Source: Malacoraja senta (lineage: Eukaryota). From it: a stretch of DNA of 64,000 nucleotides. The stretch lies in contig CM075987.1 of NCBI GenBank assembly GCA_038087875.1, positions 25,484,001 through 25,548,000 of the forward strand, in the 5' to 3' direction. Below are positions 2,620 to 63,835 of the stretch, in pieces (the first letter of the stretch is position 1; the number at the start of each line of letters is the position of its first letter). Position numbers and translations under genes: made by a program. The notes beneath the pieces were generated by a model. That model was not told where the DNA came from, searched no databases, and saw nothing but the letters and a program-made list of their open reading frames with translations.

Positions 2620-3590
2620 AATGCAGTGGAGTAAAAGCTCTCCGCCTTTCTCCGACCCTAGTCGTCCTGCCAGTTCCACTGTTCGCATCCAGACATCCCT
2701 TCGTTATCACCACTTCCTCAGCCAACAATGGACCATTGTGGGCTCCACCTTTTCTCGGTCATCGGTGCCGGCTCGGATTTGTGCTGAACCATATCAGACA
2801 TCCAATTTCTCCCTCCCCCCAAACTCGCGGTCTGAAGAAGGGTTGCGAATGGTATGTTGGCCTTCATAGCAAGAGGATTTGAGTATAGGAGCAGGGAGGT
2901 TCTACTGCAGTTGTACAGGGTCTTGGTGAGACCACACCTGGAGTATTGCGTACAGTTTTGGTCTCCAAATCTGAGGAAGGACATTATTGCCATAGAGGGA
3001 GTACAGAGAAGGTTCACCAGACTGATTCCTGGGATGTCAGGACTTTCATATGAAGAAAGACTGGATAGACTTGGCTTATACTCGCTAGAATTTAGGAGAT
3101 TGAGAGGGGATCTTATAGAAACGTACAAAATTCTTATGGGGTTGGACAGGCTAGATGCAGGAAGATTGTTCCCGATGTTGGGGAAGTCCAGGACAAGGGG
3201 TCACAGCTTAAGGATAAGGGGGAAATCCTTTAAGACCGAGATGAGGAAAAACTTTTTCACACAGAGAGTGGTGAATCTCTGGAACTCTCTGCCACAGAAG
3301 GTAGTTGAGGCCAGTTCATTGGCTATATTTAAGAGGGAGTTAGATGTGGCCCTTGTGGCTAAAGGGATCAGAGGGTATGGAGAGAAGGCAGGTACGGGAT
3401 ACTGAGTTGGATGATCAGCCATGATCATATTGATTGGCGGTGCAGGCTCGAAGGGCCGAATGGCCTACTCCTGCACCTATTTTCTATGTTTCTATGTTTC
3501 TATGACCCGAGACCATTCCTATTTATTTTTCCCAGAGATGCTGCCTGACCCGCTGAGTTGTATACTCCAGCATTTTGTGTCTACCTTCAA
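2620..3590 (+). mobile_element. PLE-derived 3' element interrupted by a CR1 fragment
   Basis: CTGAAGAAGGGTTGCGA at 2832-2848 resumes as GACCCGAGACCATTCC...AGAGATGCTGCCTGACCCGCTGAG at 3504-3590. Confidence 0.65.
2849..3503 (+). mobile_element. CR1-clade LINE 3' fragment (ORF2 C-terminus plus 3'UTR)
   Basis: ORF 2854-3405 with LYRVLVRPHLEYCVQFWSP...RRLRGDLIETYKI...FFTQRVVNLWNSLP; (TTTCTATG)n tail. Confidence 0.93.
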
Positions 3591-4255
3591 AGCATTTGAT
3601 CAGTTGCGTCCGTCCCTCTAGACTGAGCCATTGATTGCTTCCGCATCTTTGCACTTCATGCATGAGAAATCAAAATAGCTGCAACTCAATATGTAAACAG
3701 GGAAGCTAATCCCAAGAAGATTGTGGTCTTTGGTGGGATTTGACTTCATATTTTGATATAGTCAATGTCAGGAAGGATCAACTAAATCATGATACAATCT
3801 CAGTGCCACACTTCAGTCCTGCAATTAGTATGCGAAAGGGAACAATTAAAGTTTCTAATTAAATCCACCAATCTTGCAAAACATTAAAAATTAAACTCAG
3901 CCTTTATCAGGATGATATGACTATCTCTGAGACAACATTAATGAGGAATTTCCCAAGAAGTCAAACCAGAGGACGTGAGAAACAGGAAAGGTGTCTTATC
4001 CGCTTAATTTAGAAATTCAGCTTCAGTGGATGAGCAGTTGATGGAGAAATGTGCAGGAAGGAACTGCAGACGCTGGTTTAAACTGAAGATAGGCACAAAA
4101 AGCTGGAGTAACTCAGCGGGACAGGCAGCATCTCCCCATTTGTACGTTCTCCCCGTGACCTGCGTGGGTTTTTCTCTGGGTGCTCCGGTTTCCTCCCACA
4201 CTCCAAGAACGTACAGGTTTGTCGGTTAATTGGCTTTGGTAAATTGTAAATTGTC

Positions 4256-6190
4256 AGTAAAACTATAAAGGATAGTATTCGGCTGAAGGCAAGGGCATAT
4301 AAGGTAGCCAGAGATAGTGGGAGGGTAAAGGATTGGGAAGCATTTAAAGGTCAGCAAAAAATAACTAAGAGATTAATCAAGACGGGGAAAATAGACTATG
4401 AAAGGAATTTAGCGAACAACATAAAAACTAATAGTAAGAGTTTTTATAGCTATATAAAAAGAAAAAGGGTGGCTAAGGTGAACGTTGGTCCATTGGAGGG
4501 TGAGACTGGAGAGTTGTTGGTGGGGAACATGGAAATGGCAAAGGCATTAAACGAGTATTTTGTATCAGTCTTCACCATAGAAGACACAAAAAATATTCCA
4601 ACGCTGGATAAACAGGGGGCGGTAGGAATGGAGGAGCTAAATACTACTAAGATCACCAAGGAGGTGGTATTAGGGAAATTAATGAGACTGAAGGAGGATA
4701 AATCCCCTGGGCCTGATGGATTACATCCAAGGGTCTTGAGGGAGATAGCGGTGGGGATTGTGGATGCATTGGTGATAATTTTCCAAAACTCCCTGGAGGC
4801 AGGAACGGTCCCAGTGGATTGGAAAATGGCCAATGTAACACCTATATTTAAAAAAGGAAGTAAACAGAAGGCGGGTAACTATAGACCGGTTAGTCTAACA
4901 TCGGTGGTGGGTAAAATGTTAGAGACAATTATTAAAGAAACACTAACGGGGCACTTGGATAAACATGACTTCATCGGACAGAACCAGCATGGTTTTGTGA
5001 AGGGGAAGTCCTGTTTAACGAATCTGCTCGAATTCTTTGAGGAAGTAACAACCCGGGTGGATAAAGGGGAACCGGTGGATGTGGTATACTTGGACTTCCA
5101 AAAGGCTTTTGACAAGGTGCCACATAAGAGACTATTGCTAAAAATAAAAAAATTATGGGATTGGGGGTAATATATTAGCATGGGTAGAGGATTGGCTAAC
5201 AAATAGGAAGCAGAGAGTGGGGATAAATGGTTCATACTCGGGATGGCAACCGGTAACTAGCGGGGTTCCGCAAGGGTCGGTGCTGGGACCCCAGTTGTTC
5301 ACAATTTATATAAATGATTTGGAGGAGGGAACCAAGTGTAATATATCAAAATTTGCGGACGATACAAAAATGGGAGGAAAAGTAGGGGATGAGGAGGATA
5401 GGAAGAGTCTGCAAAAGGATATAGATAAGCTAGGTGAGTGGGCAACAACTTGGCAGATGAAATTTAATACTAATAAATGTGAAGTCATTCACTTTGGGAA
5501 AAAAATGATAGGGCAAGTTATTTTCTAAATGAGGTGGAGCTGCGTTGTAATGCAACGCAAAGGGATCTAGGGGTAGTAGTACATGAATCACTAAAAGTTA
5601 GTATGCAGGTGCAGCAAGCAATCAGGAAGGCCAATGGAGTTTTGGCCTTTATTGCTAGGGGGATTGAGTATAAAAACACGGAGGTCTTGCTGCAGCTGTA
5701 CACAGTATTAGTGAGACCACATTTGGAATACTGTGTACAGTTCTGGGGTCCATACTTAAGAAAGGATGTACTGGCCCTGGAGGCAGTGCAGCGAAGGTTT
5801 ACAAGATTAATTCCTGCAATGAGGGGATTGACATATGAGGAAAGGTTAAGTAGGCTGGAACTCTACTCTTTGGAGTTTAGAAGAATGAGAGGCGATCTCA
5901 TTGAAACATATAAGATCGTGAGGGGCCTTGATCGGGTGGATGCACCGAGGATGTTCCCAATGATCGGGGAAACTAGAACTAGGGGACATAGTTGTAGAAT
6001 AAGGGGGGGCTCTTTTAAAACTGAGATGAGGAAGAACTTCTTCACCCAGAGGGTGGTTAATTTATGGAATTCACTGCCCCAGGGAGCAGTGGAAGCAGAA
6101 ACATTAAATATATTTAAGTCTAAAATAGATGGTTTTTTAGCTGCCAAGGGGATAAGGGGCTACGGGGAGAGGGCAGGGATATGGACCTAG
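4256..6190 (+). pseudogene. CR1 ORF2 reverse transcriptase, 5'-truncated, two frameshifts
   Basis: ORFs 4469-5170, 5217-5528 and 5534-6190 join into one frame after removing one A near 5150 and adding one A near 5500; the frame is open back to 4256; no APE endonuclease domain. Confidence 0.9.
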
Positions 6191-6523
6191 GTATGGTTAG
6201 TATAGTAAGACCTGAGTGATCTCCTGGACAAGTGTCGATCGCCTGGATTGGGGTCGGAGAGGAATTTCCCGGATTTTTTTCCCGAATTGGACCTGGGTTT
6301 TTATCCGGTTTTTTGCCTCCCCCAGGAGATCAAGCGGTTCTTGGGGTGGAGAGGGGTGATAGCGGTATAAAGGGAAGGGTAGTGTCTTGTGTTCTGTGTC
6401 TTGTGTCTACTGTTTGTGGGTAAGGGTGTCTGTTTAGTGTTCAGCCATGAGCGAATGGCGGTGCGGGCTCGATGGGCCTGGTGGTCTACTCTCGCACCTA
6501 CTTTCTATGTTTCTATGTTTCTA
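4256..6523 (+). mobile_element. Young 5'-truncated CR1-clade LINE (HER1-like), 2.27 kb
   Basis: RT motifs NYRPVSLTS, QHGF, LDFQKAFDKVPH, SGVPQGSVLGP, FADD; (TTTCTATG)n tail; 4-bp TGTC duplication at 4252-4255 and 6524-6527. Confidence 0.96.
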
Positions 6524-6849
6524 TGTCCCTAGTTTGTAGGATGGTGTTAGTGTAGAGGGTGGCCGATGGTCAGCATGGACTCTATGGGCCAAAGGGCCTG
6601 TTTCCATGCTCTATCTCTTAAAAAGCAAACCCCTGTTGTGGTTAGATATTACTGTCCTTTGTTGGCCAAAATTCCAGGGTACCACTGTGGTCTCCACCCA
6701 AAACGTTACCCATTCCTTCTCTCCAGAGATGCTGCCTGTCCCGCTGAGTTACTCCAGCTGATGGAGACTGTACTTTTACACCTCAGTCCCTGGCTAATCA
6801 ACTGTTGCGACATTAAAGTCGCTTTTAAATTTGTTTTCAAGCTAAGCTC

Positions 6850-10131: not shown

Positions 10132-10669
10132 CGTACCATTTGTGCAAAGTAAATGGTTGTGTGAAGTAAATTAATTTTGGGACTCACAAATGACGGCACA
10201 CCTTAATTCCCTGAAAGTGTTTGCTAATTTGCACACTAATAACAACAAATAGTCCATTATTTTTCCAACCACATTTGGTCTGATGTCCTCTGACACAGTG
10301 TCTGACTTCCATGCACCCTTATCTCATACAGATGCCTTCTACCCTTCTGGATGGAACTTATGTATTCACCCTATCTATGATATTATACACCTCTGCAAGA
10401 TCACCCCTCATCACCCTGCGCTCCAAGGAATAAAGTCCTAGCCTGCCCAATCTTTCCCAATAGCTCAGGCCCTCAAGTCACAAGACCTTCTCTGCACCCT
10501 TTTCAATGAACAACATCCACCCTGTAGCAGGCGTCAACATTGTAATTTTAATTTCACAGAGAGAACTTCAGTCAATGTGACCTTTATATATTTGTCTCAT
10601 CATTTCCAGGCACCATCAGCCAAGCTGTTTCATCCAGTCAGCCCATGAAGCCAGACAGAAGTTAAATAT

Positions 10670-10915
10670 TTAAGAAGGAACTGCAGATGCTGGAAAATCG
10701 AAGGTAGACAAAAGTGCTGGAGAAACTCAGCGGGTGCAGCAGCAGCATCTATGGAGCGAAGGAAATAGGCAACGTTTCGGGTCCGAAACCCGGAAGGGTT
10801 TCGGCCCGAAACGTTGCCTATTTCCAGAAGGGTTTCGGCCCGAAAGGTTGCCTATTTCCTTCGCTCCATAGATGCTGCTGCACCCGCTGAGTTTCTCCAG
10901 CACTTTTGTCCACCT
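10670..10915. mobile_element. Palindromic PLE-derived short element with TSD
   Basis: Inverted arms of about 90 bp; 14-bp TSD CAGAAGT(T/A)AAATAT at 10656-10669 and 10916-10929. Confidence 0.85.
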
Positions 10916-11640: not shown

Positions 11641-12259
11641 AAATATCTCTACAGTAACCTAAACTAAACTAAACCAGTTTACCAACTTGGCACCTCACAG
11701 GTACTGAAATTCCTTCTCATTACTTCTTCATTTCTCACCAGCCCCAGATATCAACAAGAACAAATCTCCAAGTGCTTATTGACCTTAACAAACCAGAAAA
11801 ACACTGGTCATTTGTTAAGATTAAGTTAGTTTAGAGGTACAGCGCAGAAGCAGGCCGTTTGGCCCACCGTTTCCGCGCCGACCAGCGATCCCCATACACT
11901 AACAATATCCTACACTGTAGAGACAATTTACAATTTTACCAAAGCCAATTAATCTACAAACCTGTATGGTTTTGAAGCGCGGGAGGAAACTGGAGCACCT
12001 CAAGAAAACCCACGCAGGTCACGGGGAGAATGTAAATGAAAACTACGTGACATTCATCCAACAGACAGTGTTGCCAGATATAAGAACACAGATGCCCAAG
12101 AGAAGTATTTTAAAATCCATTCAAAATGGCTTCTATATTTCACAGATCGGCACAAAGTGCTGGAGAAACTCGTCGGGCAGGCAGCAGCTCTGGAGAAAAA
12201 GGATGGGTGACGTTTCAGGTCTTCTTCAGGCTTCAATTGTTGTACCTTTTCATATCCCT

Positions 12260-14562: not shown

Positions 14563-14569
14563 TGAAAAT

Positions 14570-14775
14570 GTGTAGGAAGGAACTGCAGATGCTGGTTTAA
14601 ACCGAAGATAGACATGCAAAGCTGGAGTAACTCAGTGGGTCAGGCAGCATCTCTGGAGAAAAGGAATAGGTGACATTTCGGGTCTGAAGAAGGGTCTCGA
14701 CTCAAAACGTCACCCATTCCTTCTCTCCAGAGATGCTGCCTGACCTGCAGAGTTACTCCGGCATTTTGTGTCTAT
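14570..14775. mobile_element. Palindromic PLE-derived short element
   Basis: Inverted arms around a degenerate hammerhead-like core at 14684; TGAAAAT duplicated at 14563-14569 and 14776-14782. Confidence 0.8.
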
Positions 14776-15588: not shown

Positions 15589-16824
15589 CCATGATGGATT
15601 CTTGGGTTGGGTAGTGTAGATGGTTTATGCATGCAACCAATCACATAGCTACCTCACCACTACTAACCCCGCCTTAAGTATCATTTATAATAACGCCTGT
15701 TTCTCCTTCTGCGCAGTACAGTAGCAGACTGGAGTCAGTGACTACTCATGTATTGCTTAACTCTGTATACTTATTAAAGACAGGTAGTAAACCACCAGAT
15801 AGTGTGCAATCTGCTCACGAGCGTGCTCTAGATAGCACAGGCCTCGTTTCCCTGAGATACCAAAACCGATGGTTGATTGCTTTAGACAAAATGAGCTTGA
15901 ACAGACTGCAATCAATTAGCTTTCAGCAAAGAGCCAAATTATTTATTCCGTAAAATTACTCAGCTGGAAGGTAGAATATGTTAAAGTGTGAAAAAAAATA
16001 ACAGATAAGGATTCATCAATCAGCCATAATTGGGAAAGTCTACAGAAGATCAAAGGCAAACTGTTGGGGGAAGTAATGTTAAAAATCATTAATGTTCTCG
16101 TGAACATGCAGTGATAATGCATTGCAACTAGTTGGTCCAAAAGGAATATTTGATTTGATCTGTACCTTATCTCCCCGTAATCTCCAACTGCAGCCCATTG
16201 ATTATCAATTCCTGTGTAGGAGGAAACTACAGATGCTGGCTTACACCGAGGATAGACACAAAATGCCGGAGTAACTCAACGAGACAATTACTCCAGCATT
16301 GTGTATAAACTAACCTGCTGAGTTCTTTAGTTGTCTGAGTGACCCGGACAGAACAATGCAATTCTTACTTGCAGCACAACAGAACATGTAAATATAGTAC
16401 ACTGCCAACAATATAATAAACAAAGTTAGAAGAAGTTTTAGTTTAGTCTGTTATCACGTGTACCGAGGTACAGTGAAAAGCTTTTGTTGAGTGCTAACCG
16501 GTCAGCGGAAAGACAATACGTCATTCCAAACGAGCCATTTACAGTGTATAGATACATGATAAGGGAATAACATTATCAATGACTCTATGATCTGATTACC
16601 CCAACCCTCCCAGTTGTTTCAGATTCACAGTCTTGGAAACAGGTTGAACACCATCCACTATGGGTGGATCCAACAGACTGGTTCTACCTACAGTACATAC
16701 AGCACAGAACGCCACAGGAGATCCTTCTTCCCTGTGGCTATCAAACTCTACAACTCCTCCCCCTTCTGTCGTGGGCTAGACTGACTCTCTTTAGCGGTCA
16801 GAGGAACATCCTTGCATGAAGTAG

Positions 16825-17410
16825 TTGTTTAGTTTGGTTTAGTCTATTGTCACGTGCACCGAGGTACAGTGAAAAGCTTACGTTGCGCGCTAACCAGTCA
16901 GCGGAAAGACAATACATGATTACAATCGAGCCACATACAGTGTATCAATACATGATATGGGAATACCGTTTAGTGCAAGGTAAAGCCAGCAAAGTTCGAT
17001 CAAGGATAGACCGAGGGTCACCAAAGAGGTAGATAGTGGTTCAGCACTGCTCTCTGGTTGTGGTAGGATGATTCAGTTGCCTGGTAACAGCTGGGAAGAA
17101 ACTGTCCCTGAATCTGGAGGTAGACAAAAATCAAACTGATGCTGCCTCACCCGCTGAGTTTCTCCAGCATTTTTGTCTACCTTCGATTTTTCCTGCATCT
17201 GCAGTTCTTTCTTAAACTGAATCTGGAGATGTGCGTTTTCACACTTCTGTACTTTTGCCTAATGAGAGAGGGGAGAAGAGGGAGTGGCCGGGGCGCGACT
17301 CATCCTTGATTCTGTTGCTGGCCTTGCCGAGGCAGCGCGAGGTATAAATGGAGTCAATGGAAGGGAGGTTGGTTTGTGTGATGGTCTGGGCTGCGTCCAC
17401 AATTCTCTGC
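16825..17410 (-). mobile_element. Rex1/Babar-like LINE 3' fragment with nested PLE-derived element
   Basis: QRIVDAAQTITQTNLPSIDSIYTSRCLGKA in ORF 17239-17556(-); (AAACT)-type tail; the PLE insert 17120-17216 has a perfect 12-bp TSD CTGAATCTGGAG at 17108-17119 and 17217-17228. Confidence 0.85.
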
Positions 17411-18185: not shown

Positions 18186-18642
18186 CCGAACATTCTTCAG
18201 TCCGAAGAAGGGTCTCGACCCGAAACGTCACCCATTCCTTCTCCCCACAGATGCTGCCTGTCCCGCTGAGTTACTCCAGCATTTTGTGTCTATCTTCAGT
18301 TTAAACCAGCATCTGCAGTTCCTTCTACACATTGAAAGTTTCCATAGTGACATTGGTATCTCGCTTCCTAGACCTTGTTGTCGGTTTCTCAAAATCCCAC
18401 CTGAAGTTATTACAAAAGAATTGAAGAGCAGTATTTTTTGGCACTACTGATATGATTTTGCTTGCCGTCTTGCTGGCAGGTCACAATCGCACCACAGTAG
18501 TGAGCTCACACTTACACTTAAGCTTATATATGTGGACCCAAGTATAAAGCGGAGAGAAACGGATCATCCCTATGTAATACTACTTTTATGTCCTTGCAAA
18601 CTGTGAACCATTGTCAGAATATGTACCATTGATACATTTTTA

Positions 18643-19047
18643 GTAGACACAAAATGCTGGAGTAACTCAGCGGGTCAGGCAGCATCTGTGGAGAGAAGGA
18701 ACGGGCGACGTTTCGGGTCGAGACCCTTCTTCAGACTGAAGAAGGGTCTCCCAAGGGAGGGTGCAGAACAAAGATATAATGTAGGCAGAGACAGGGATAC
18801 TGGTGGGAGAACTGGGAAGGGGGAGGGAATGGAGAGAGAAAGCAAGGGCTATCTGAAGTTAGGGAAGTCAATGTTCATACCGCTGGGGTGTACACTACCC
18901 AAGCAAAATATGAGGTGCTGTTCCTCCAATTTGCGCTGGGCAACTTGTCCCATTCCTTCTCTCCAGTGATGCTGCCTCACCCACTGAGTTACTCCAGCAT
19001 TTTTGTGTCTACCATCGATTTGCATCTGCAGTTCTTTTCTTACACAT
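18643..19047. mobile_element. PLE-derived element with inverted arm and GIY-YIG C-terminal remnant
   Basis: Minus strand 18850-18940 encodes AQRKLEEQHLIFCLGSVHPSGMNIDF; inverted 3'-end copies at both sides. Confidence 0.8.
18707..18734 (-). ncRNA. Minimal hammerhead ribozyme-like core (PLE-associated)
   Basis: Reverse complement is CTGAAGA-A-GGGT(CTCG)ACCC-GAAACGTC. Confidence 0.65.
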
Positions 19048-19056
19048 TGAGAAATT

Positions 19057-19350: not shown

Positions 19351-19971
19351 ACCTTCTTGAGGTTGACTGGACTGACATGTTGGGGAGATTCTGAACCATG
19401 CTCCAGTGATGCTGGAGACTTTGACCTATCGCCTTCTACATCATACTAGGAGGACCTACAAGCGTTTACATGGCGGTGAGCAGCATTGAAAAGTACGGCT
19501 CCTGTTTCGTTGCAACATTTTATGAGCGGAATAACTTATTCTCCTTGATTTTCACATAGGATTTCCAGCAGGTTTGTTCTTGCAACAGGAATTCCGTTGC
19601 TCAAACCCCTGAGGTTTCATCTACAGGCTATCGTTTTGAAGTCCCCCATCCCAGTCCTCTGCAGCCCATCCTTTGTGCAACAATGTCCTCTAAAGAGCGG
19701 GCAAATGAATCCTCCCACCACAGGCCACTGCAGGTGATATCTGCGGCTCAGAGAATAACGTCTTTTCAACTGCTGCCTCTACCTTCTGTTGATTCCCTGG
19801 TTGCTTAGTAACTGGGGGACGGACACATGAGATGGGAGTCTATCGCTCTCTGAAAGAAATAATGCATGATGATGTGGTGATGGTGGGAAGAGAGAGAAAG
19901 AGAGAGGTGGGAGGTGGTCCCCCATGGTGCGGATGAGACAGTGGATGAAAAGGATGTGGGCTCGGTGAAAT

Positions 19972-20160
19972 GTGTATGAAAGAACTGCAGATGCTGGATA
20001 AAACAGAAGATCGACACAAAAAGCTGGAGTCACTCAGCGGGACAGACAGCATCTCTGGGGAGAAGGAATAAGTCTGAAGAAGGGTCTCGACCCGAAACAT
20101 CACCCATTCTTTTCTCCAGAGAAGCTGCCTGACCCCGCTGAGTTACTCCAGCATTTTGTG
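19972..20160. mobile_element. Palindromic PLE-derived short element
   Basis: Minus-strand complete 3' end joined to a plus-strand arm that starts at the hammerhead-like core 20074-20101. Confidence 0.8.
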
Positions 20161-20404
20161 ACTGTCTGACGCGAGGCGAGATTGCATCACATATAAATGC
20201 AATAGACAATAGACAGGAGTAGGCCATTCGGCCCTTCCAGACAGCACCGCCATTCAATGTGATCATGGCTGATCATCCCCAATCAGTACCCCGTTCCTGC
20301 CTTCTCCCCATATCCCCTGACTCCGCTATCTTTAAGAGCCCCATCTAGCTCTCTCTTGAAAGAAAGAATGTTTTCATCAGCAATCTCTTTGTTCTTTCTA
20401 ACCA

Positions 20405-20677: not shown

Positions 20678-21204
20678 AAAGTGGAGAAAAATCAGAACCT
20701 TCAGCTGATGTTATCAACTCCTGCAATTGGATGCTGTGGATGCAGACTACTGCAATCTATAGCTGACTAAACACACAATCCTGATGATAGACACAACGTG
20801 CTGGAGTAACACAGCGGGTCAGGCGGCATCTCTGGAGAAAATAGATGGGTGAGGTTTTGGGACAGCATCCTCCTTCAGACACATAATGAGTTTTGGCATG
20901 AATCTCAAGAACAAGCGCAGTTCATGTGTCATATTTCCATTGATTAGAGAGCATTGTTTTCACGTGAAAGGGTCAATATGTGAAGTAGGAGCATTTTTTT
21001 TTTTTACACAGAGGGTGGTGAGTACCTGGACTTGCACGTCTTTGTAGTGTGGGAGGAAACCGGAGCACCCGGAGAAAACCCACACGGTCACAGGGGGAAC
21101 GTACAAACTCCGTACAGACAGCATCCGTGGTCAGTATTGAACGTGGACCTCTCTCGCTGTAAGAAGAATATACTGTTTCACTGACAGGTTATGGAATGAA
21201 TAGA

Positions 21205-40015: not shown

Positions 40016-40225
40016 GATAAAGGAACTGGCTCGAAAAGGGCTGTAACATTTCTCAATTCCCAGATAGATTGACAGAAGCAGTCAGGCACTACAGACATGG
40101 ACTTTGAACATTCAACCGGAATCAAACACAGCTCGTGTAGTCATTTGTATTCATATCTTTGTTGCAATTATTCAATGAACACTTAAGATAAACTCTAACA
40201 AGAGGAATAAAACAAAAACATATTC

Positions 40226-42479: not shown

Positions 42480-42642
42480 AACAATTCCTTCGTATTCAGC
42501 TAATGGAGAGTTTCTTGATCAATATTTACCTCAGTGATGTTCAAATTAGCTCCCAGGAAAGTGTGGACACCGGGTGTAATGAACTCCTGATTCTGCATAA
42601 AACTTTCAGTCATTATACTTTATTTTATCCTGCTCCTAATGA

Positions 42643-48032: not shown

Positions 48033-48319
48033 CATACATACATATCTTTCATTCATTTTTTTTTTGTTGCCGTCTTTTTCTCCCGTTTCCCTTTCCCCTG
48101 ACTCTCAGTCTGAAGAAGGGTCTTGACCCAAAACGTCACCTATTCCTTTTCTCCAGCGATGCTGCCCGTCCCGCTGAGTTACTCCAGCTTTTTGTTTCTG
48201 TCCTCCGTCTCTTTTCATTGTGTGACTCAAGTGGCCAGCAAGACCTAGTTGGTGTGGGATTAAAAAAGCTGTGGCATGCAAACAAAGGCAATAATTGAAA
48301 AGGCATTTGGAAACTCCCC

Positions 48320-48805
48320 CCCCCCTACCCCCCTCCCTGCAGGATCTATACACCAGGAGATACAGATCCAGAGCCAGCAACATTATGGGGGACCCCTACC
48401 ACCCCAGCAACGGACTGTTCCAGCTGCTACGGTCAGGCAAACGCCTCCGCTGTCACGCTGTGAAAACAGAGAGGATGAGACGGAGCTTCTTCCCACAATC
48501 CATCAGGACTGTAAACTCTGATCTCACCAGGGTTTCGGCCCGAAAAACGTTGCCTATTTCCTTCGCTCCATAGATGCTGCGTCACCTGCTGAGTTTCTCC
48601 AGCATTTTTGTCTACCTTTGATTTTCCAGCATCTGCAGTTCCTTCTTAAACAACAGGGCATTATTATTGTTGTCTTTTTAAAAAAAAATGTAAATACTGG
48701 TTCTGTTCTGTTGTTCTGTTGTTTTTGCACAATCCTGCAGGCATTGCCACTTTCATTTCACTGTACATCTTGTATGTGCATGTGACAAATAAAATTGACT
48801 TGACA
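48320..48805 (+). mobile_element. Rex1-like LINE 3' fragment interrupted by a PLE 3' end (about 48530-48650)
   Basis: LPPSLQDLYTRR..IMGDPYHPSNGLFQLLRSGKRLR..RMRRSFFPQSIRTVN; tail GTGACAAATAAAATTGACTTGAC. Confidence 0.8.
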
Positions 48806-51343: not shown

Positions 51344-52828
51344 AATGGAGTTCAGGAGACATCTTTGCTTGGTAGAAATATCATCCCTTTAGATATCCAC
51401 CATCTCAGTATATCCCTGACAAAGAGTAACTTAGTTGGATAATTTTCTCCCAGCTGTTATCAGGCAACTGAACCATCCTACCACAACCAGAAAACAGTGC
51501 TGAACTCCTATCTACCTCATTGGTGACCCTCAGACTATCCATGATCGGACTTTGCTGGCTTTAACCGTGCACTAAACGTTATTCCCTTATCATGTATCTA
51601 TACACTGTAAACGGCTGGATTGTAATCATGTATTGTCTTTCCGCTGACAGGTCAGCATGCAACAAAAGCCTTTCCCTGTACCTCGGTACACGTGACAATA
51701 AACAAAACTAATGGGTGCTGATATCCAATATTGGATGAAGAGTGCCAGCAGTTCAATGAGAATCCCACACAAGTGATGTTATATCACCATCAAGTCTTTG
51801 GGCGGCACGATGGTGTCGTTAGTAGAATTGTTGCTTCCCTGCTCCAGAGAAAATAATATGGGATTAGTGTGGGTTAAAACTTTTGGCTTTGTAAACATAA
51901 AATGGCTTTGCAAAAGCATAAATCAGCCTCCAGTTCGTAAACAAACCTCTGTCTCTTATCATTGCATGACCCAAATGGCCAGCAAGACTTAGGTATAGTG
52001 TCATATAGTCATACAGCGTGGAAACAGCCCCTTCTTAGTTCAGTTTATAAATTCATATTCGTAAGTACTAGGAGCAGAATTAGGCCATTCGGCCCATCGT
52101 CTACTCCGCCATTCAATCGTGGCTGATCTATCTCTCCATCCTACCCCCACTCTCCTGCCTTCTCCCCATAACCCCTGACACCCGTACTAATCAAGAATCT
52201 ATCTATCTATCTCTGATTTTAAAATATCCATTGACTTGGCCTCCACAGTTTAGTTTAGTTTATTGTCACGTGTACCGAGGTACAGTGAAAAGCTTTTGTT
52301 GCGTGCTATCCAGTCAGCGGAAAGACAATACATGATTACAATCGAGCCATTCACAGTGCACAGATACATGATCTGCCCGACTGGCCACACCAACCAACAT
52401 GCCCCACCTACACTGGGCATTTGACCTGCTGCGTTACTCCAGCACTGTGTGTCATCTCGTGTATTAACCAGCATCTGCAGCATCCTTGGTTCTACACAGT
52501 TATTTCTGTTAATTTATTTATTCACAGGTTATGAAAGTCACCGGCATTTGTTGTTTATCTTCGAACAAAGCAGCCTATTAAGCATTTTCCACAACATGGT
52601 TTGTGGAGCTGCAGTTTACAGTTTAGTTTATTGTCACATGTACCGAGGTACAGCAAAAAGCTTTTGTTGAGCGCTAACCAGTCAGCAGAAAAAGAATGCA
52701 TGATTACAATCGAGCCATTCATATACAGATACATGATAAGCGAATAATGTTTAGGGCAAAGTTAAGCCAGCAAAGTCCGATCAAGGATAGTCCAAGGGTC
52801 ACTAATGAGGTAGATAGTAGTTCAGCAC

Positions 52829-53520: not shown

Positions 53521-55390
53521 AGTTGGAACAGTACGAAGCAGAACACAAATATGGAATAAAATCACAGAGCACTCAAGTGATTTGGAATTAAATAAAGCAT
53601 AGAAATGAGCAAGGATTTCAGGCAGCTGGATTTTTTAATTAGATTTTTGGATAACATTTGTATTCAGAATTGTTCTGTTCTGAACAATTTAATCTCCTTT
53701 CTGCAGGTACAACGTTAATTCCATTTGCACAAAATTACTGTTTGATGCTGGAGAATTTGTTTCACCGTTAAAAGATTAAATATACTAGTTTACGTTTTTT
53801 GCATATCTTTCATTCATTTGTTCCCTATCTCTCTGTATCTCTCATTTCCCTCTCAGTCTGGAGAAGGGTCCCCTGTTCTTTTTCATCAGAGATGCTGTCT
53901 GACCCGCTGAGTTACTCCAGCTGTGTGTGTGTCTATCTACTAGTTTAGTTTAGAGATGCAGCAAACACGTCCACTGAGTCGGCGCTGACCAGTGCTCCCC
54001 GTACACTGGCCTATCTACTACCCCACACACACACACTAGGGACAATTTACAATCTTTACTGAAGCCAATTAACCTACAAATGTGTACGTCTTTGGAGAGT
54101 GGGAGGAAACCGGAGCACCCGGGGAAAACTCACGCAGGCCTCAGGGAGAATGCACATACTATGTACAGACAGCACCCGTGGTCAGGATCGAACCCGGGTC
54201 TCTAAGGCAGCAACTAACTTTTTTTGCCGGCCCATTAAGTCTACTCCTTGTAAGTGCTGAAACTTTCTCAATGAGATGGTGTGTAGAACAGCTTGTGAAA
54301 GAACAGAACAAGTCCGAGAGTATTTACATGCATATGTGTGATTATCAGAAATTATTAATTAATTTGCCTTCTAATAATAGTCACTGCTGGAACTGCTGTA
54401 AAAATTCAGCCCAATATCTTTTTCCTTCATTTACTGCTTAGTTTAGTTTAGAGATGCAGCACGGCAACAGGCCCTTCGGCCCACCGACTCTGCGATCCCC
54501 ATACACCAACACTACCCTACACACACTAGGGACAATTTACATTTTTACCAAGCCAATTAACCTACAAACCTGTACGTCTTTGGAGCATGGGATGAAAACG
54601 GACATCTCATGGATACATGGATTTACTGCACATGGATAGGGCAGGTTTGGAGAGGTATGGACCAAACGTAGGCAGGTGTGACTATTGCAGCTGGGACATG
54701 TTGGCAGGTGTGGGCAAGTTGGGCCAAAGGGCCTGTTTCCACACCATATCATTTTATGACTATCTTGGAGAAAACCCACACAGGTACGGGCAGAATGACA
54801 GAACGGACAAGTCAGGATCGAACCCGGGTATCTGGCGCTGTAAGGCAGCAGCTCTACCGCTGCGACACTAATATCTTTCTCCTTCATTTACTGTGTAATG
54901 GAATAATCCATCATATACCACGGTGCAGGTATTCAGCTAAAAATCAGGCATCTACTGCAGAACCTCAGTTAAATGTTTCCACTATATACCAAAAATCATT
55001 TTGCCATTCATTACAATACCTCAAAGGGCATGGCTATATTGGGCTTTATTATTTTAATCTTCAGGGGAATGTACTTTGTTATACCAGGTATATCATTTTC
55101 AAAGTGTGCATTTAAAACACATTTTTCATTTCACTGTTCTTTTGTTAATCAGGGTCATTATTTTAGTTCAGAGGGCAGTTTAATCCATATTACATTCAAC
55201 TCCACTCTTTTAGTTCCTGTCAATTGAAATTGGATTAAAATATGAATCATTGAAGTTAAAAATGAAATGGTATGGGGTTCACGGTGACACTCTTATCTGA
55301 GGTGGGCAGAATAAATGTGTTTCGTTTTTTTTTAAGTTTAGAGATACAGCGTGGAAACAGGCCCTTCGGCCCACCGAGTCCGCACCGGTC

Positions 55391-55574: not shown

Positions 55575-55614
55575 TCAGTGGGGCAGGCAGCACCTCCGGA
55601 GAGAAGGAATGGGT

Positions 55615-55642
55615 GACGTTTCAGGTCGAGACCTTTCTTCAG
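55615..55642 (-). ncRNA. Hammerhead-like core with an A-U variant at the base of stem II
   Basis: Reverse complement is GGT-CTGAAGA-A-AGGT(CTCG)ACCT-GAAACGTC-ACC. Confidence 0.55.
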
Positions 55643-56794
55643 ACCGATCTTGTTACCGGTCCATGATTAAAGGAAAGGATGTTAATGGTATCATGAGAGT
55701 GAAATTAGGATGTTCTTTTAGGAAGGAGAGGAGGAGGAATTCCTTTAGTCAACATGGTGGTGAATCTGTGGAATTCTTTGTCACAGATAGTTGTGGAGGC
55801 CAAGTCAGTGGATATGTTTAAGGCAGAGATAGATAGATTCTTGACTAGTATGGGTGTCAGGGGCTATAAGAAGAAGGCAGGAGAATGGGGCTGGGAGGGA
55901 GAGATAGATCAGCCATGATTGAATGGTGGAATAGACTTGATGGGCCAAATGACCTAATTCTGCTCCTATCACTTATGACCTATGACCTTAAATGTAAATT
56001 GATTGAATGAACATTTTTTAATTTCCTTAATGCATTTTTATTCTGTATAATTTAGCCTAATTCTTTTTTCTTATTACTCAATAATAATAATAATAGATTG
56101 TATTCATGGGCGCCTTTCACAAAGTCTCAAGGACACCTTACAAAGTTTAACAATTGCAATTCTATTGGTTCTATTTTTATTTATGTTTGAAGATGCAACA
56201 AAAATCTTGGCCATATTGAATAAATTACACTATTTTTATGTTTTCTCGGTTGAATTTCAGGAAAAGCATCACTGTTCTGTATTTTTTGGATGTTGAGATA
56301 TATATAGCTTAATCCCTCATAGCAATGAACAGAAAAGAGTTAAATTACTACATAACTAACCTTGCGTTAGACTCCCCCAAAGTCACAGCAATAACAATGC
56401 GTGCAATAAATCAAGTATTCATCTCTGCAAATAATTATGTTGACATTATTGGGATTTGTGCGGTAATTGAAGAATGGGCTTCTCGCAAAACAGTCATTTC
56501 ATCCCGCTGTTCTATTGAGGTTCATAGGCCGCTCAATGTCCATCTCTCAGCTTCATAGCGTCAACAGAATTACTGCCTTGAAGCCGGCTGCCAGACAGAT
56601 ATTGCCTGACACGTGTCTCGCGAGGGAAAGCTGTAGAGCTTCCAATTTTTTGTTTATACATGGACACAAAATGCTGGAGTAACTCAGCGGGTCAGGCAGC
56701 ATCTCTGGAGAAAAGGAATGGGTGACGTTTCGGATCGAGACCCTTCTTCAGACTGAATTTCTGAAATTGATTCTACGAAACGATACGAAACACT

Positions 56795-57470: not shown

Positions 57471-57818
57471 CATCCAAGATTCCGTTGTACATAATGGTTG
57501 TGATGCTCTTCCTCTGGCTTGATCAACATTTGCTATGATCTGTCGTTTTCACACCTTACCCTTCTATAGTCTCCCTCTCCCCTGACTCTTAGTCTGAAGA
57601 AGGATCTCAACCCAAAACGTCACCCATTCCTTCTCTCCAGAGATACTGCCTGTCCCGCTGAGTTACTCTAGCATTTTGTATCTAACTTTGGTGTAAACCA
57701 GCATCTGCAATTCCTTCCTACACATTCCAATTTTTTATGTTGCCTGTAAAAAAGATGGGGTTACTTTTGGTCATTTCCTCAGCAGGTTTTACTTCTGTAA
57801 ATATTTTATAAATTACTT

Positions 57819-59034: not shown

Positions 59035-59523
59035 TGGCTGGGTGTCAGCTCCAGTATTTATAAGCCGTAAGGACCAGGCACGTGCTCCCAGCGCAAACTA
59101 CATCGCTGATGGAGAAACCTGGATTCATTTATTTCCTGACAGTACAAGTAACGTGTTGTACAGCTCCCCCACCGGTACAGAGTAGCTCTCCTTTACAAAT
59201 AACGCGCGACTACTGTGTGATTCATGTACCACATCCAGGTTTAAAGTACATTCCCTGCTTCACATTACTTTAAACAAAGATGTCCCGTCGTGATTTCATT
59301 ATAGCCCAGGATGATTAACATTTAGTTGCTCACTGCTACATCGGACCAGTACCAAGTAACCTGACAATTGTAGTAACATTGCAGACTAACCTCCAGCTTA
59401 TTAGTCGAATGATGCAAGCTGAACGAAGAGAGATGGGTGAAAGAAAGGTCTACTCTACAGCAAGGTGGAAATAAATGATTTTACTTCAGAACTCCACCCC
59501 TCAGTCCCTGGGTATTTATAGAC

Positions 59524-59760
59524 CTACATGCACATGTACAAACACGCATGCATGCACATACGCACACGCATGCACATATGCACACGCATGCACAGACACA
59601 TACGCATACGCATGCACAGACACATACATGCACACGCATGCACAGACACATATGCACACGCATGCACAGACACATACGCACACGCACACACAGACACATA
59701 AGCACACGCATGCACAGACACATACGCACACGCATGCACAGACACATACATGCACACATC
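59524..59760. repeat. CA-rich compound minisatellite (about 24-bp unit CACACGCATGCACAGACACATACG)
   Basis: Visible tandem array; explains the HT/CV-rich ORFs. Confidence 0.92.
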
Positions 59761-59784
59761 TCTACAGGAACACATATATTTAAA

Positions 59785-60060
59785 ATAGAGTCATAGAGTC
59801 TTACAGCTTGGAAACAGTCTCTTTAGCCCAACTTGCCCACACCATCCAACATGTCCCAGCTACACTAGTCCCACCTGCCTGCGCTTGGTCCTTATCCCTC
59901 CAAACCTGTCCTATCCATGTACCTTTCTAAATGTTTCTTAAACGTTGGGATAGTCCCAGCCTCAACTACCTCTTCTGGCAGCTCGTTCCATACACCCACC
60001 ACCCTTTGCGTGAAAAAAATTAACCCTCAGATTCCTGTTAGATCTTTCCCCCCCTTACCT
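59785..60060 (-). mobile_element. CR1 3' fragment, (CTATGACT) tail
   Basis: Same 3'UTR as 13601-13900. Confidence 0.85.
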
Positions 60061-61106
60061 TATCTTCGGATTCATACTTTGAAAGGCTCTTGACATTTTT
60101 TGTCCAATTCAGTTATTGTCTAATTCATGTACAGTGGTGTAGCCTCACAGCCTTGGAGACCCGGGTTCAAACCTCTTGTGCTGTATGTGTGGAGTTTGCA
60201 TGTTTCTCCCTGTGAACATGTGGGTTTCCTCCCCACATCCCAGAGATGTGCAGGTTTGAAGGTTAATTGGCCTTCTGTAGATTGCCCCTAGTTTGTAGGA
60301 ACGGAATAACATAGAACTAGTGTGAATGAGTACACACAAATGCTGGAGTAACTCAGCGGATCAGGCAGCATCTCTGGAGAAAAGGAATAGGTGACAGTTT
60401 TGGGTCAAGACCATTCTTCAGACTCGAAGGCCATCACGGACTCAGTGGGCTGAAGGGCCTGTTTCTATGCTTTATCTCTAAACTGAACTAAAGTCTACCA
60501 TAACAAATATTTGATATAGAGTGTCGAGGAAATCGACATATTTGCACAATTTATATTATTTTTGCAAAACCCTTTCTCCATCTGAAGAGGGAGCCATGTA
60601 CTCGTTGATCTTGAAACATCCATCAAAGTAACAACATCTCTCTCCGCTAAAGGAGCAGAAGTTAAGGAATGAAATGCGTAGGAAGGAACTGCAGGTGCTG
60701 GTTTAAACCGAAGATAGACACAAAATGCTGGAGTAACTCAGCGGGTCAGACAGCATCTGTGGAGAGAAGGAATGGGTGACGTTTCGGGTTGAGACGTTTC
60801 CCTAGTGTGTAGGATAGTGCTAAGTGTATGGGGTGATTGCTGGTTGGCGTGAACCCGGTGGGCCGAAGAGCATGTTTCGACACCGTTTCTCAAAATTCTA
60901 AAGTCGAAACTCAACAAACAAATTCTCCTGATGCAGATTGTACAGTGTAGGATTTAAAATATACCTGGGTCCTAATTGTGCGGCACCTAGATAATTTTAC
61001 AATAACATTGAGCTTCATCCTCTCAAGGATTCTTATAGAGTCATACAGTGCAGAAACAGGCCCTTCGCCCCAACTTGCCTACACCGACCAACAGGTCCCA
61101 ACTAAT

Positions 61107-61134
61107 CTGAAGAAGGGTCTCGACCCGAAACGTC
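61107..61134 (+). ncRNA. Minimal hammerhead ribozyme-like core, consensus-perfect
   Basis: CTGAAGA-A-GGGT(CTCG)ACCC-GAAACGTC. Confidence 0.65.
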
Positions 61135-61149
61135 AACCATTCCTTCTTA

Positions 61150-61751: not shown

Positions 61752-62318
61752 TGGAGACCATTCTCCAGAGATGCTGCAACATTTTGTGTCTATCTTCATT
61801 GTCCCAGCTACGCTAGTCCCACCTGCCTGCGTTTGGCCCATATCCCACAACACCCGTCCTATCCATGTACCCGTTTAAATGTTTCTTAAACGTTGCGGTA
61901 ACAACTATCCAGTAACTAAATCTGCCAGTTCTTAAACTGAACCCAAACCCTTCCATCTGCCATCTCTTTAATACAGAAATAAAGGCTTACTTCAGTTAAA
62001 TGTTCCTGTTTCCTTCAGACCGATGATTGAGTTTTCCATCCCTTGAGGAACAGCTGCCAAGCGCTCCTTTGCATCTGATCGCTCAGAGCCCACAGTCAAC
62101 TGCTGTGTAAGACGGATTGCACCTGATAAACATCACCTTAAAGGCTAATTTAAAATTTAGCCGTATGACATTTTTTCATAACCGTTTTTATATTATTTGC
62201 TACTTTCCATTTATTTTTCATCTCCCCTAACCTGGCAGCGAGCTAAAAGATCCCACGGGGTGTGGTGTTGGCGTACCCTGCTGTTCCACGCACCCTACCT
62301 TGCTGGACAGAAAGCAGA

Positions 62319-62613: not shown

Positions 62614-63027
62614 AGAGAGAGAAGTCTCGCTGTGCTTGGAGTGAGAGACCAGCAATGATCAGGTACAGCGTGGGGAAGCAGAGTGGTTGAATGCATTTTA
62701 CAGTCAGCTTGCAAAACTAAATATGATGGAGAGGAAAATTCAAAGCTTCATTTCCAGACCCATATTCCCCCACTGGGCAACAATGTTATAACAAACTCAA
62801 AATAAACTGCCATTTCCATTCTATTTCCACGGGGAATTTTTAATTTCCGAAAGGCTTTGCATGACTCACGACATTTGCCGAATAGATTAAAGGAATTATT
62901 TCAGGGTTTGTGCCCTAGTTTTCCTTTGTATGAAAATATAACGCATTTCAATGAACGGAAACAAATAGATGCTGGAAAATATATATTATCCATTCTTTCC
63001 GGTTATGGATGTACACCTCACTCACGT

Positions 63028-63343
63028 GGGCGGCACGGTGGCACAGCGGTACAGTTGCTGCCTTCACACAGCGCCAGAGACCCGGGTTCAATTCCGACTA
63101 TGGGTGCTGTCTGTACGGAGTTTGTATGTTCTCCCCGTGACCGCGTGGGTTTTCCCCGGGTGCTCTGGGTTTCCTCCCACACTCCAACGACGTACAGGTT
63201 TGTAGGTTAATTGCGTTCGGTAAAGATTGCAAATTGTCCCCAGTGTGTGTAGGATAGCGATAATGTGCGGGGATCGCTGGTCGGCGCGGACTCGGTGGGC
63301 CGAAGGGCCTGTTTCCACGCTGTATCTCTAAACTAAACTAAAC
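63028..63343 (+). mobile_element. V-SINE, full length
   Basis: Head through the (AAACT)n tail. Confidence 0.9.
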
Positions 63344-63574
63344 CTCCTGTGGTCACCCTTTAATGGGTTGGTTAATTTGACAGGAGGGCCTCACTGATGA
63401 TGCAACTTTTCTACCTGATCGATCTCTGCTGGAGATCAGGTCAATGCCTCAACGAAGGACACCAACAAAGGAAGATCAAACCCAGTGTTGAATGAAGCAG
63501 AGGGTGAGACATTTCAAATGATTACAAGAAAGCACATCAAGCTGACTTGAAGCACTTTCCCAAACTGACATCAA

Positions 63575-63835
63575 CTGAAGGATCTGCAGATGCTGGTTTA
63601 CACCAAAGACAGACACAAAATGCTGGAGTAACTCAGCGGGTCAGGCAGCATCGCTGGAGAGAAGGAATGGGTGACGTTTTGGGTCGAGATCCTTCTTCAG
63701 ACTAAGAGTCAGGGGCGAGGGAGACGAGAGATATGAAATGGTACATGGAACAAATGAATAAAAGGTATGCAAAAGGACAAATCAAAGCCAGCAACGATGA
63801 TCAAGGAAATGTGGAGCCCATACTGGTCCATTGAC
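63575..63835 (-). mobile_element. PLE-derived 3' element
   Basis: Conserved 3' end and a degenerate hammerhead-like core at 63673-63700. Confidence 0.75.

Follow-up and report, generated by a model that had tools for sequence, protein, structure and literature searches.

Minimal hammerhead ribozymes (min-HHRs), which lack helix III, have been described in both flanking repeats of Penelope-like elements (PLEs), elements that encode a reverse transcriptase (RT) and a GIY-YIG endonuclease (EN) (PMC4209133). These motifs combine CUGANGA and GAAA boxes with an unpaired nucleotide before stem II, a G10.1-C11.1 pair, a short helix I and, in place of helix III, only a palindrome at positions 15.2-16.2; they are mostly solitary and derive from truncated elements, some lying near each other on opposite strands (PMC4209133). 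They cleave poorly in vitro and were proposed to work as dimers (PMC4209133), and a review summarizes later work as confirming dimers (PMC6765202). In the current study, we describe a 64,000-nt stretch of the Malacoraja senta genome (GCA_038087875.1, contig CM075987.1, positions 25,484,001 to 25,548,000, forward strand; the whole stretch is called the window below) in which a 28-nt hammerhead-like motif resembling these ribozymes in location, architecture and arrangement recurs many times. It departs from the published families in its stem II of 4 bp, compared with 7-8 bp in the Schistosoma families, and in its helix I of 2 bp, as in a Drosophila virilis variant and unlike the 4-5-bp families; moreover, those families are highly heterogeneous with covariation, whereas variation here is mostly CpG decay (PMC4209133).

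The Poseidon PLE of Anolis carolinensis (PAc) likewise forms tandem units with a hammerhead at the unit junction, and its insertions have been shown to end at two adjacent internal reverse-transcription start sites downstream of the hammerhead, ~65-105 nt past the cut, which explains the 30-40-nt tail (PMC11167929). As here, PAc insertions come from uncleaved RNA and no RNA-seq ends fall at the cut site; the PAc hammerhead is protein-assisted and dispensable for insertion in vitro, and priming is possible from either target strand (PMC11167929), in keeping with the head-to-head pairs described below. PAc differs in that its open reading frame (ORF) begins within the hammerhead and its reverse-transcription start lies 111-118 nt inside that ORF, whereas the module studied here lies wholly upstream of the likely ATG, ~160 nt past the motif start. 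Unlike that of PAc, the EN linker here has the extra C-x4-C-x2-C of Neptune/Nematis-type PLEs.

Two further systems are relevant. Animal non-LTR retrozymes are short non-coding repeats with type I hammerheads that co-occur with PLEs, are related to PLE terminal repeats (pLTRs) and include dispersed monomers, all of which recalls the present family (PMC7229834; bioRxiv 10.64898/2026.07.22.740005). The same sources give them 170-400-nt tandem units, canonical hammerheads with loop-loop contacts and abundant circular RNAs, whereas the units here are 95-130 nt long, mostly solitary or head-to-head, and carry a minimal hammerhead without loop-loop partners. The Penelope element of D. virilis has an internal TATA-less, LINE-like (long interspersed element-like) promoter with an initiator and an RGACGTGY downstream element (PMC2377424), for which a putative counterpart exists here, and it shares the 2-bp helix I and the pyrimidine tract plus CAG before helix I (PMC4209133). 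That tract in D. virilis is the 3′ end of a 75-nt intron between transcription start and hammerhead, and transcription starts ~120 nt upstream of the hammerhead, whereas an initiator-like TCAGT adjoins the motif here.

The recurrent motif and its Penelope-like context

The 28-mer CTGAAGAAGGGTCTCGACCCGAAACGTC has 20 matches with at most 3 mismatches in the window (11 on the + strand and 9 on the - strand; 0 expected), and the relaxed box pattern CTGAAGA-N13-GAAAC is matched exactly 11 times, against 0 in each of 100 dinucleotide-preserving shuffles. The initial annotation of this DNA, made from the letters alone, had reported such a recurrent motif, and its claim was borne out: all ten places that it regarded as intact or nearly intact (18707-, 20074+, 27291-, 28041+, 32397+, 39639-, 40708-, 55615-, 56724- and 61107+) are among these matches. 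Nine of the 13 places that it called degenerate also match at this threshold (14684, 18202, 24721, 29644, 40551, 44167, 48110, 57594 and 63673), and the other four (2832, 10793, 36534 and 42355) are genuine but partial, deleted or 5′-truncated: roughly the first 13 nt of the motif are retained at 2832, 10793 lies within a head-to-head pair (10664-10915), the GAAA box is deleted at 36536, and at 42356 a 5′ truncation inside the CUGA box is accompanied by a target-site duplication. It had overlooked 32569(-), which is within the limit of 3 mismatches, as well as copies in a more decayed state at 1372+, 20781- and 60332-. The density that it proposed, about one motif per 3 kb, holds in the window (one per 3.2 kb), but genome-wide there is only one per 9.6 kb.

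The motif forms the first 28 nt of a conserved module of ~95 nt, or ~130 nt with an optional tail. In oriented flanks, similarity extends ~65 nt beyond the 28-mer, as far as ...GCATTTTGTGTC; roughly half of the copies remain similar over another ~35 nt. The motif at 28041 had been tied to a GIY-YIG ORF, and ORF 27412-28044, which runs into it, indeed has a GIY-YIG match just below the Pfam cut-off (E=2.2e-4; 21.9 bits vs 22.6), preceded by a C-x4-C-x2-C linker motif (...FPCNRKRCNTCPF...). Against the whole genome, this EN ORF gave 115,089 first-look candidates, of which the 150 scored were 97-100% identical and lay in open frames that reach 1,264 amino acids. At all four loci examined, successive motifs share a strand, are spaced 3,889-4,055 nt apart and enclose a long ORF; young copies are tandem units of 3.9-4.05 kb with a single RT and GIY-YIG ORF, and the motif lies between units. 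This spacing, with such an ORF in between, gives the pLTR-ORF-pLTR layout of canonical EN-bearing (EN+) PLEs. The sole Pfam matches in a 1,224-codon frame are RVT_1 (residues 708-877) and GIY-YIG (1128-1161). In young units the motif begins ~120 nt past the ORF stop and ~160 nt ahead of the next likely ATG, and at one locus (L014) the 3′ end of the previous unit precedes the first motif, forming a partial tandem.

Within the window, 27417-28133 is a 5′-truncated copy of the young family, sharing 98% identity with the terminal 717 nt of a 3.9-kb unit. Four more motifs (18707-, 39639-, 40551+ and 44167+) are preceded by EN-coding remnants, which represent at least two older lineages. The module is 80-85% identical between lineages whose 3′ untranslated regions (3′UTRs) do not align with one another. 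The two properties on which identity as a PLE terminus depends, carriage of RT plus GIY-YIG and a position of the motif between tandem units, were both checked and found. The earlier assignment of the motif to PLEs is thereby confirmed, and it is very probable that the motif is a min-HHR in the pLTR of canonical EN+ PLEs, the dispersed copies being decaying relics. The linker sequence ahead of GIY-YIG points to the Neptune/Nematis type, for which a CX2-5CxxC motif in the linker before EN is reported (PMC8557442). Heavy 5′ truncation of the copies makes the terminal module by far the commonest piece of the element.

Across the 1.94-Gb assembly, the 28-mer occurs 18,728 times exactly and 201,852 times with at most 3 mismatches, equally on both strands, compared with 0 for a reversed control; the young hammerhead variant (GGGU-UUCG-GCCC, GUU site) occurs 32,434 times with at most 1 mismatch. 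A sensitive BLAST search with one old and one young module as queries found 46 modules in the window (4,222 bp, 6.6%) and 94 in a random sample of 200 kb (8,540 bp, 4.3% of bases), which comprised twenty 10-kb pieces drawn randomly from the ten largest contigs. The sample is representative in that it holds 22 motif matches at up to 3 mismatches, vs 20.8 expected from the genome count, and extrapolation from these 200 kb gives roughly 0.86-0.91 million modules genome-wide. The ~202,000 near-matches to a single 28-mer compare with min-HHR counts, found by structure descriptor, of ~4,000 in the coelacanth and 9,000 in Xenopus (PMC4209133), and with retrozyme copies numbering up to 120,000 in the axolotl, whose genome has 28 Gb (PMC7229834). 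Abundance, far above these figures, is the only unusual aspect; it includes a family whose copies, 97-98% identical, still have long open frames. The element class is already known: PLE terminal repeats with minimal hammerheads, tails, truncation and inverted copies have all been published.

The hammerhead core and evidence on cleavage

PLE hammerheads reportedly cleave as dimers (Lünse, Weinberg & Breaker). In the present family, the core C3 U4 G5 A6 N7 G8 A9 ... G12 A13 A14 is found in the commonest sequence and in both lineages, and the cleavage triplet is GUC in old copies and GUU in those of the young lineage. Among the 77 full ungapped motif copies, the 4-bp helix II (GGGU/ACCC) is paired in 87.7% of cells; its loop varies (CUCG, UUCG, CCCG) while the stem is kept, and an unpaired A (motif position 8) stands between positions 9 and 10.1 in 73 copies. 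The palindrome C15.2-G16.2 reads ACGU in both lineages and AACGUU in the young one, its G being retained in 46/77. The core boxes, the GUC/GUU site, the 4-bp stem II and the ACGU palindrome in place of helix III match the published min-HHR (PMC4209133), as the initial annotation had recognized. Its stem II variants are also real (GGGT/GCCC at 28041; AGGT/ACCT at 55615 and 36536), and pairing is kept in them as described; in the copies at large, however, an A-U pair at 10.1-11.1 occurs in only 3, vs 12 with this pair unpaired (5 of them A·C), the remainder having G-C (50) or G-U (12).

No helix III can form within one molecule, as only A-CG-U lies between GAAA and H17, which leaves no space for a hairpin; a 4-bp helix III is possible only between two copies. 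Core and NUH site are intact in 26/77 copies, in 20 together with all four stem II pairs, and in 9 with G10.1-C11.1 and ACGU as well. These last, called complete motifs below, belong to 4 of the 46 modules of the window and 5 of the 94 of the sample, and those on the same strand of the window are separated by more than 30 kb. Conservation is lowest at the three CpGs, with G12 retained in 66% and G16.2 in 60% of copies; this loss is ordinary methylation decay, and CpG decay has broken most cores.

Several observations weigh against our reading. Both Pfam domain matches of the ORF fall under the curated cut-offs (25.7 vs 29.6 for RVT_1; 19.3-21.9 vs 22.6 for GIY-YIG). Helix I has 2 bp in 41/77 copies, 0-1 bp in 27 and 3-4 bp in 9, and its third and fourth pairs are formed in only 14/77 and 16/77. 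The predicted minimum-energy folds of monomer and dimer differ from the hammerhead fold, a result that is uninformative for a ribozyme of tertiary structure. The hammerhead families of Rfam are type I, type II, type III, HH9 and HH10. They have the same catalytic core as the motif, but a scan of the whole window against Rfam, which the initial annotation had proposed for the hammerhead models, found no hammerhead at either threshold: at the gathering score there were 0 matches to any family, and the 22 at E<=10 included no hammerhead. As these models require helices I and III and the motif is a minimal form without helix III, this outcome was to be expected and is not decisive. The covariation check proposed at the same time came out negative for the 77 copies, in which pairing is no better than in shuffles (68.7% of cells paired vs 68.2%, with 125/500 shuffles as high; covariation score 0.152 vs 0.142, with 75/500 as high); between lineages, only a U-A to U-G change at 10.4-11.4 is seen. 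This null result says little about the master elements, since copies decay neutrally. Conservation itself, judged from sequence, is not creditable to the ribozyme specifically, because the whole 130-nt module is conserved between lineages, well beyond the core.

Expression was assessed in one raw, polyA-selected RNA run, of which ~6% was read, by alignment to the unit junction. The module is covered about equally in both orientations (~1,500 reads in the deepest bin; mean depth ~1,660 reads in the bin of the predicted cut), and 95% of aligned reads continue into unrelated sequence, which indicates that many transcripts contain embedded copies. The points at which reads pass into unrelated sequence are -6 and -2 on one side and +93 to +95 and +129 on the other, the latter agreeing with the two 3′ ends of insertions described below. 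RNA ends at GUC/GUU had been suggested as a sign of cleavage, but these reads show no excess of ends, and hence no pile-up, at the predicted cut; this is weak evidence that the copies are passive passengers of other transcripts, with no visible cutting. Among the RNA reads, an analysis not aimed at circular RNAs showed no back-joints. The depth of the module exceeds that of the adjoining EN and 3′UTR of the young family only ~2-10-fold in contigs of another run, probably of DNA.

The insertions themselves also bear on cleavage. Of the 140 modules used for the counts of anatomy (46 from the window and 94 from the random sample), 83 span the predicted cut, and 8 start at +29 to +36, a per-position rate no higher than elsewhere; both facts imply that the templates were uncleaved, as for PAc. 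If active, the hammerhead would act in the element's own multimeric transcript, as a dimer and probably aided by protein, whereas the insertions themselves are copies of uncleaved RNA. In this reading the dispersed genomic copies, mostly short, decayed and probably inactive, are neutral relics without a host function.

Anatomy of the copies

Positions in the module are counted from the first base of the motif. Besides the 83 modules that start at position 5 or before, 16 start at 6-12, 13 at 13-28, 8 at 29-36, 13 at 37-60 and 7 beyond 60. Ends are bimodal, falling at 86-103 in 57 modules and at 118 or later in 61, ~35 nt apart; 5 others end at 104-117 and 17 are cut short before 86. Insertions thus have two end points downstream of the motif, at ~+93 to +99 or at ~+123 to +135, which lie ~65 and ~100 nt past the predicted cut. 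There are 23 head-to-head inverted pairs, involving 46/140 modules, 5 tail-to-tail pairs and 9 pairs of same-strand neighbours within 300 nt. Perfect young head-to-head pairs with a single base separating the two CTGA boxes occur, and target-site duplications of 8-15 nt are found at several short copies. PLE insertions are marked by heavy 5′ truncation, an adjacent inverted 5′-truncated copy and an optional 30-40-nt tail (PMC8557442); the copies here carry these published signatures as spread 5′ starts, inverted pairs and two 3′ ends.

Upstream of the 77 full motifs lies PLE 3′UTR in 27, an inverted arm in 13 and unrelated sequence in 37, the inverted-arm class being a strict test such that some further inverted arms fell into the unrelated ("other") class. 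Module-only copies with sharp 5′ ends and target-site duplications exist, and in a small sample their mix of variants at positions 14, 29, 32 and 35 does not differ from that of copies joined to PLE 3′UTR. The modules of the window are as follows.

1372-1457 (+): old decayed PLE terminal module (positions 4-89), core broken
2832-2848 (+): partial motif (~first 13 nt) after pyrimidine-rich PLE 3′UTR, interrupted downstream
3504-3589 (+): module 5′-truncated at position 16, no CUGA box
4048-4133 (-): module 5′-truncated at position 48, with tail
6689-6758 (+): module 5′-truncated at position 10
10664-10915 (10664-10791 -, 10826-10915 +): head-to-head young-type pair, CUGA box missing or broken
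12144-12221 (-): module 5′-truncated or with an indel
14567-14775 (14567-14684 -, 14686-14775 +): head-to-head pair; + arm with full motif, G12 lost (GAAA to AAAA, CpG decay)
16213-16286 (-): 3′ part of module only (58-130)
17138-17217 (+): 3′ part of young-type module only (50-128)
18202-18336 (+): module with tail (1-135), CCGA replacing CUGA
18644-18938 (-): 5′-truncated PLE with EN remnant 18801-18938, 3′UTR and module; complete motif 18707-18734, with a short inverted duplication at its 5′ edge
18942-19050 (+): module 5′-truncated near 23-30, with tail
19969-20167 (19969-20069 -, 20076-20167 +): head-to-head pair; 20074 motif of the + arm with intact core boxes and ACAU for ACGU
20781-20876 (-): old decayed module, core broken
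24723-24818 (+): module after PLE 3′UTR (lineage a), TTGA replacing CUGA
25340-25510 (25340-25438 -, 25440-25510 +): head-to-head pair, decayed
25986-26052 (-): module 5′-truncated near 24-35
27222-27316 (-): module after PLE 3′UTR, core boxes intact, 3/4 stem II pairs
27412-28133 (+): young 5′-truncated PLE with EN ORF 27412-28044, 3′UTR and module 28041-28133; complete motif at 28041 (GGGU-UUCG-GCCC, GUU site)
29570-29669 (-): module-only copy, G12 lost
32399-32593 (32399-32494 +, 32506-32593 -): tail-to-tail pair; + arm with intact core and 3/4 stem II pairs, - arm with broken CUGA
36401-36623 (36401-36481 -, 36536-36623 +): inverted pair; + arm with AGGT/ACCT, GAAA deleted
39316-39414 (-): module 5′-truncated at ~32, with tail
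39636-40021 (-): 5′-truncated PLE (lineage b) with EN remnant 39773-40021 (72% amino acid identity to the young EN), 3′UTR and motif 39639-39666 (core intact, ACAU); module cut after position 31 by another insertion
40204-40605 (+): 5′-truncated PLE (lineage a) with EN remnant 40204-40314, 3′UTR and decayed motif at 40551; module interrupted at 55
40612-40733 (-): module-only copy with tail, tail-to-tail against the preceding PLE, core intact, ACAU
42356-42486 (+): module with tail, 5′-truncated in CUGA box, 13-15-nt target-site duplication (AACAATTCCTTCG)
43689-44296 (+): 5′-truncated PLE (lineage a) with EN remnant 43689-43796, 3′UTR holding an unrelated ~156-nt insertion (43883-44038), and module with tail; 44167 motif with GCA for GUC
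48112-48208 (+): module after PLE 3′UTR (lineage a), G12 lost
48529-48652 (+): young-type module with tail, 5′-truncated at position 8
52422-52498 (+): 3′ part of module (58-130), decayed
53863-53947 (+): module 5′-truncated or decayed (21-102), after PLE 3′UTR
55575-55640 (-): module-only copy, 3′-interrupted; AGGU/ACCU (A-U at 10.1-11.1), core intact
56660-56749 (-): module-only copy with complete motif (one G-U in stem II)
57596-57726 (+): module with tail after PLE 3′UTR, G12 lost
60332-60419 (-): module-only copy, decayed, 1-nt insertion
60673-60800 (-): module with tail, 5′-truncated at ~6-12
61109-61147 (+): module-only copy with complete motif 61107-61134, cut after position 41
61768-61798 (+): small module fragment (67-97)
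63577-63698 (-): module with tail after PLE 3′UTR (lineage a), G12 lost

A second class of junction occurs in young head-to-head pairs that are centred inside stem II/GAAAC, with ..GGCAACGTTTCGG meeting CCCGAAACGTTGCC.. and the CUGA box wholly missing; such pairs lie at 10664-10915 of the window and at L033:3459-3651 and L026:3810-3997. Perfect motifs close together on one strand, which could allow a single RNA to form a dimeric hammerhead, are rare; examples lie 38 nt apart (C1:3997405-3997475, -) and 173 nt apart (C1:3601827-3602032, -). In the young lineage, the base after the cut site is polymorphic: it is A in 8/8 motifs of four tandem loci (L013:4089-4093) whereas the copy at 28041 of the window has G, as do the majority of reads and contigs (682/846 and 731/818 RNA reads), which suggests at least two young sub-lineages.

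Other repeats share the window. A GT/GC-rich tandem array at 59519-59840 (-), with units such as GTGCATGCGTGT, is the source of all the best sub-threshold Rfam matches (sno_ZL1 and several mir families), which look like low-complexity artefacts. A match to the CPEB3 (HDV-like) ribozyme at 43871-43934 (+), with ~20/22 nt identical in the P1/P3 region, was considered and rejected: it scores 22.5 bits vs a cut-off of 35 and lies inside the unrelated ~156-nt insertion, the sole related copy of which in the sample (L023:4498-4670, -) has no CPEB3 match. Stop-free frames in 25353-29953 (for example 26945-27292, 28344-28790, 28818-29111 and 29482-29883) share the pattern ...HGG(T/A)AVELLP...PGFDPDYG...CTFSP... 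and suggest that another short repeat of very high abundance, whose head looks tRNA-like (an impression only), is interleaved with the PLE modules. A further repeat (..AGTTTAGAGATACAGC.CGGAAACAGGCCCTTCGGCCCA.. and ..ATAGACAATAGGTGCAGGAGTAGGCCAT..) often adjoins or interrupts PLE modules, as at ~19060, 39560-39636, 60430-60480 and 61050-61100.

The 5′ boundary and the origin of the short copies

Upstream of the motif, conservation among the 77 copies falls from 0.91 at -1 to 0.77 at -2, 0.56 at -3 and 0.51 at -4, reaching background by -6. Among the 18,728 perfect 28-mers, GT is retained upstream in 14,344, AGT in 11,238 and TCAGT in 7,097 (38%); a loss of 12-22% per position beside an unchanged 28 nt indicates junctions rather than mutations. 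The boundary is therefore sharp but ragged, 1-5 nt upstream of CUGA, and it coincides with a TCAGT that is conserved in all three lineages; three target-site duplications directly adjoin -2/-3. TCAGT corresponds to the initiator consensus of TATA-less promoters. By analogy with PAc, we take the two 3′ ends of insertions to be two reverse-transcription start sites. We consider the chances about even that this boundary marks the 5′ end of the element's RNA, produced from an internal TATA-less promoter of the kind shown for D. virilis Penelope (PMC2377424), and that the short and paired copies jointly follow from it. Module-only copies would then be full cDNAs that run from the RNA 5′ end to the first reverse-transcription start site; in head-to-head pairs, reverse transcription would be primed by both target strands, and the palindrome TCAG-T-CTGA would be the point at which the two cDNA ends are joined. 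This part of our reading is opposed by the absence of a read-start pile-up at the boundary in the RNA run and by the full-length copy at L014, which extends upstream of its first motif into a partial previous unit, so that not all template RNAs start there.

Two other causes of the boundary were considered. Splicing, suggested by the pyrimidine tract and CAG before the motif, was rejected as the main cause on account of the three target-site duplications adjoining -2/-3. A second, non-canonical ribozyme cut at AUC/CUC just upstream was also rejected, because 3 nt are too short for helix I.

The initial annotation had envisaged a non-coding family resembling short interspersed elements (SINEs) or retrozymes. 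In its favour, there are module-only copies that have sharp 5′ ends and bear target-site duplications; on the other hand, autonomous coding PLEs with the same module are very abundant and young, 27/77 copies carry PLE 3′UTR, variants are shared, and copies are rarely in tandem (9 pairs among 140). The simplest reading is that the short module-only copies are by-products of these autonomous PLEs. We regard as rather doubtful the stronger version, in which the module is a self-propagating non-autonomous unit of ~100-130 nt with a lineage of its own, mobilized in trans by the PLE protein and carrying its own internal promoter, hammerhead and reverse-transcription start site. It would account for the sharp 5′ boundary, with TCAGT upstream of only 38% of perfect motifs, for target-site duplications directly flanking short copies and for the 37/77 full motifs with neither PLE 3′UTR nor an inverted arm upstream, and it would accord with the internal Penelope promoter (PMC2377424) and with animal retrozymes, reported as non-autonomous PLE pLTR derivatives (bioRxiv 10.64898/2026.07.22.740005). 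However, no private lineage is visible at positions 14, 29, 32 and 35 in the small sample, only 9 same-strand pairs lie within 300 nt among 140 copies, whereas retrozymes form tandem arrays, the module is just ~2-10 times deeper than the adjacent EN and 3′UTR in the run that is probably DNA, and the same copies are expected as by-products of reverse transcription from the 5′-proximal module of an ordinary PLE transcript.

It is unlikely, in our view, that the hammerhead-like sequence has lost cleavage in this lineage and is kept for another job, as an internal promoter in DNA or a site for the PLE protein in RNA. The 2-bp helix I would fit such a loss, as would the conservation of the entire 130-nt module between lineages with unalignable 3′UTRs, the poor cleavage in vitro of published PLE min-HHRs (PMC4209133) and the dispensability of the hammerhead for insertion in vitro (PMC11167929). 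A promoter role would likewise suit TCAGT immediately upstream of the motif and AAACGTCA ~25-32 nt downstream of TCAGT, which, compared by eye, agrees at 5/8 positions with RGACGTGY, the downstream element of Penelope and LINE promoters (PMC2377424), although the match is shifted ~3 nt from the usual place. Against this, old and young lineages alike retain 11/11 core positions together with the NUH site, the ACGU palindrome and G10.1-C11.1, stem II persists under different loops (CUCG, UUCG, CCCG), and the architecture is conserved in PLEs across animals (PMC4209133). Far less probable still is that dispersed copies act as ribozymes on host transcripts and cleave the pre-mRNAs containing them, as had been proposed. 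The module is indeed abundant in polyA RNA-seq in both orientations, with 95% of reads entering unrelated sequence, but there is no read-end pile-up at the predicted cut, a monomer has no helix III, helix I has 2 bp in 41/77 copies, and complete motifs make up 9/77 copies and 4/46 window modules, the same-strand ones >30 kb apart. Furthermore, CpG decay has removed G12 from 34% of full motifs, covariation is absent, and motif counts are equal on the two genome strands.

We favour, then, min-HHR-bearing PLE termini with by-product short copies. A more speculative proposal, which we think improbable, is that the ~100-130-nt module is a complete retro-unit, with an initiator in its first bases, a minimal hammerhead and an internal reverse-transcription start at its end, such that every solitary copy could be transcribed and then re-copied by the PLE protein. 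To the associated idea that the CUGA box doubles as half of the joining palindrome TCAG-T-CTGA, the sequence downstream being irrelevant, we give a similarly low probability. If true, the unit would be the smallest and most numerous hammerhead-bearing mobile unit described (~0.9 million copies, ~4% of 1.9 Gb), and it would explain the head-to-head hairpins in a third of copies.

For annotation, the copies should be masked as PLE ends, and not listed as ribozyme genes or as a new SINE. A genome in which they are so abundant offers good statistics on PLE mechanics, namely on where reverse transcription and template RNAs start, and the same statistics bear on how head-to-head copies form and on whether the hammerhead ever cuts its template.

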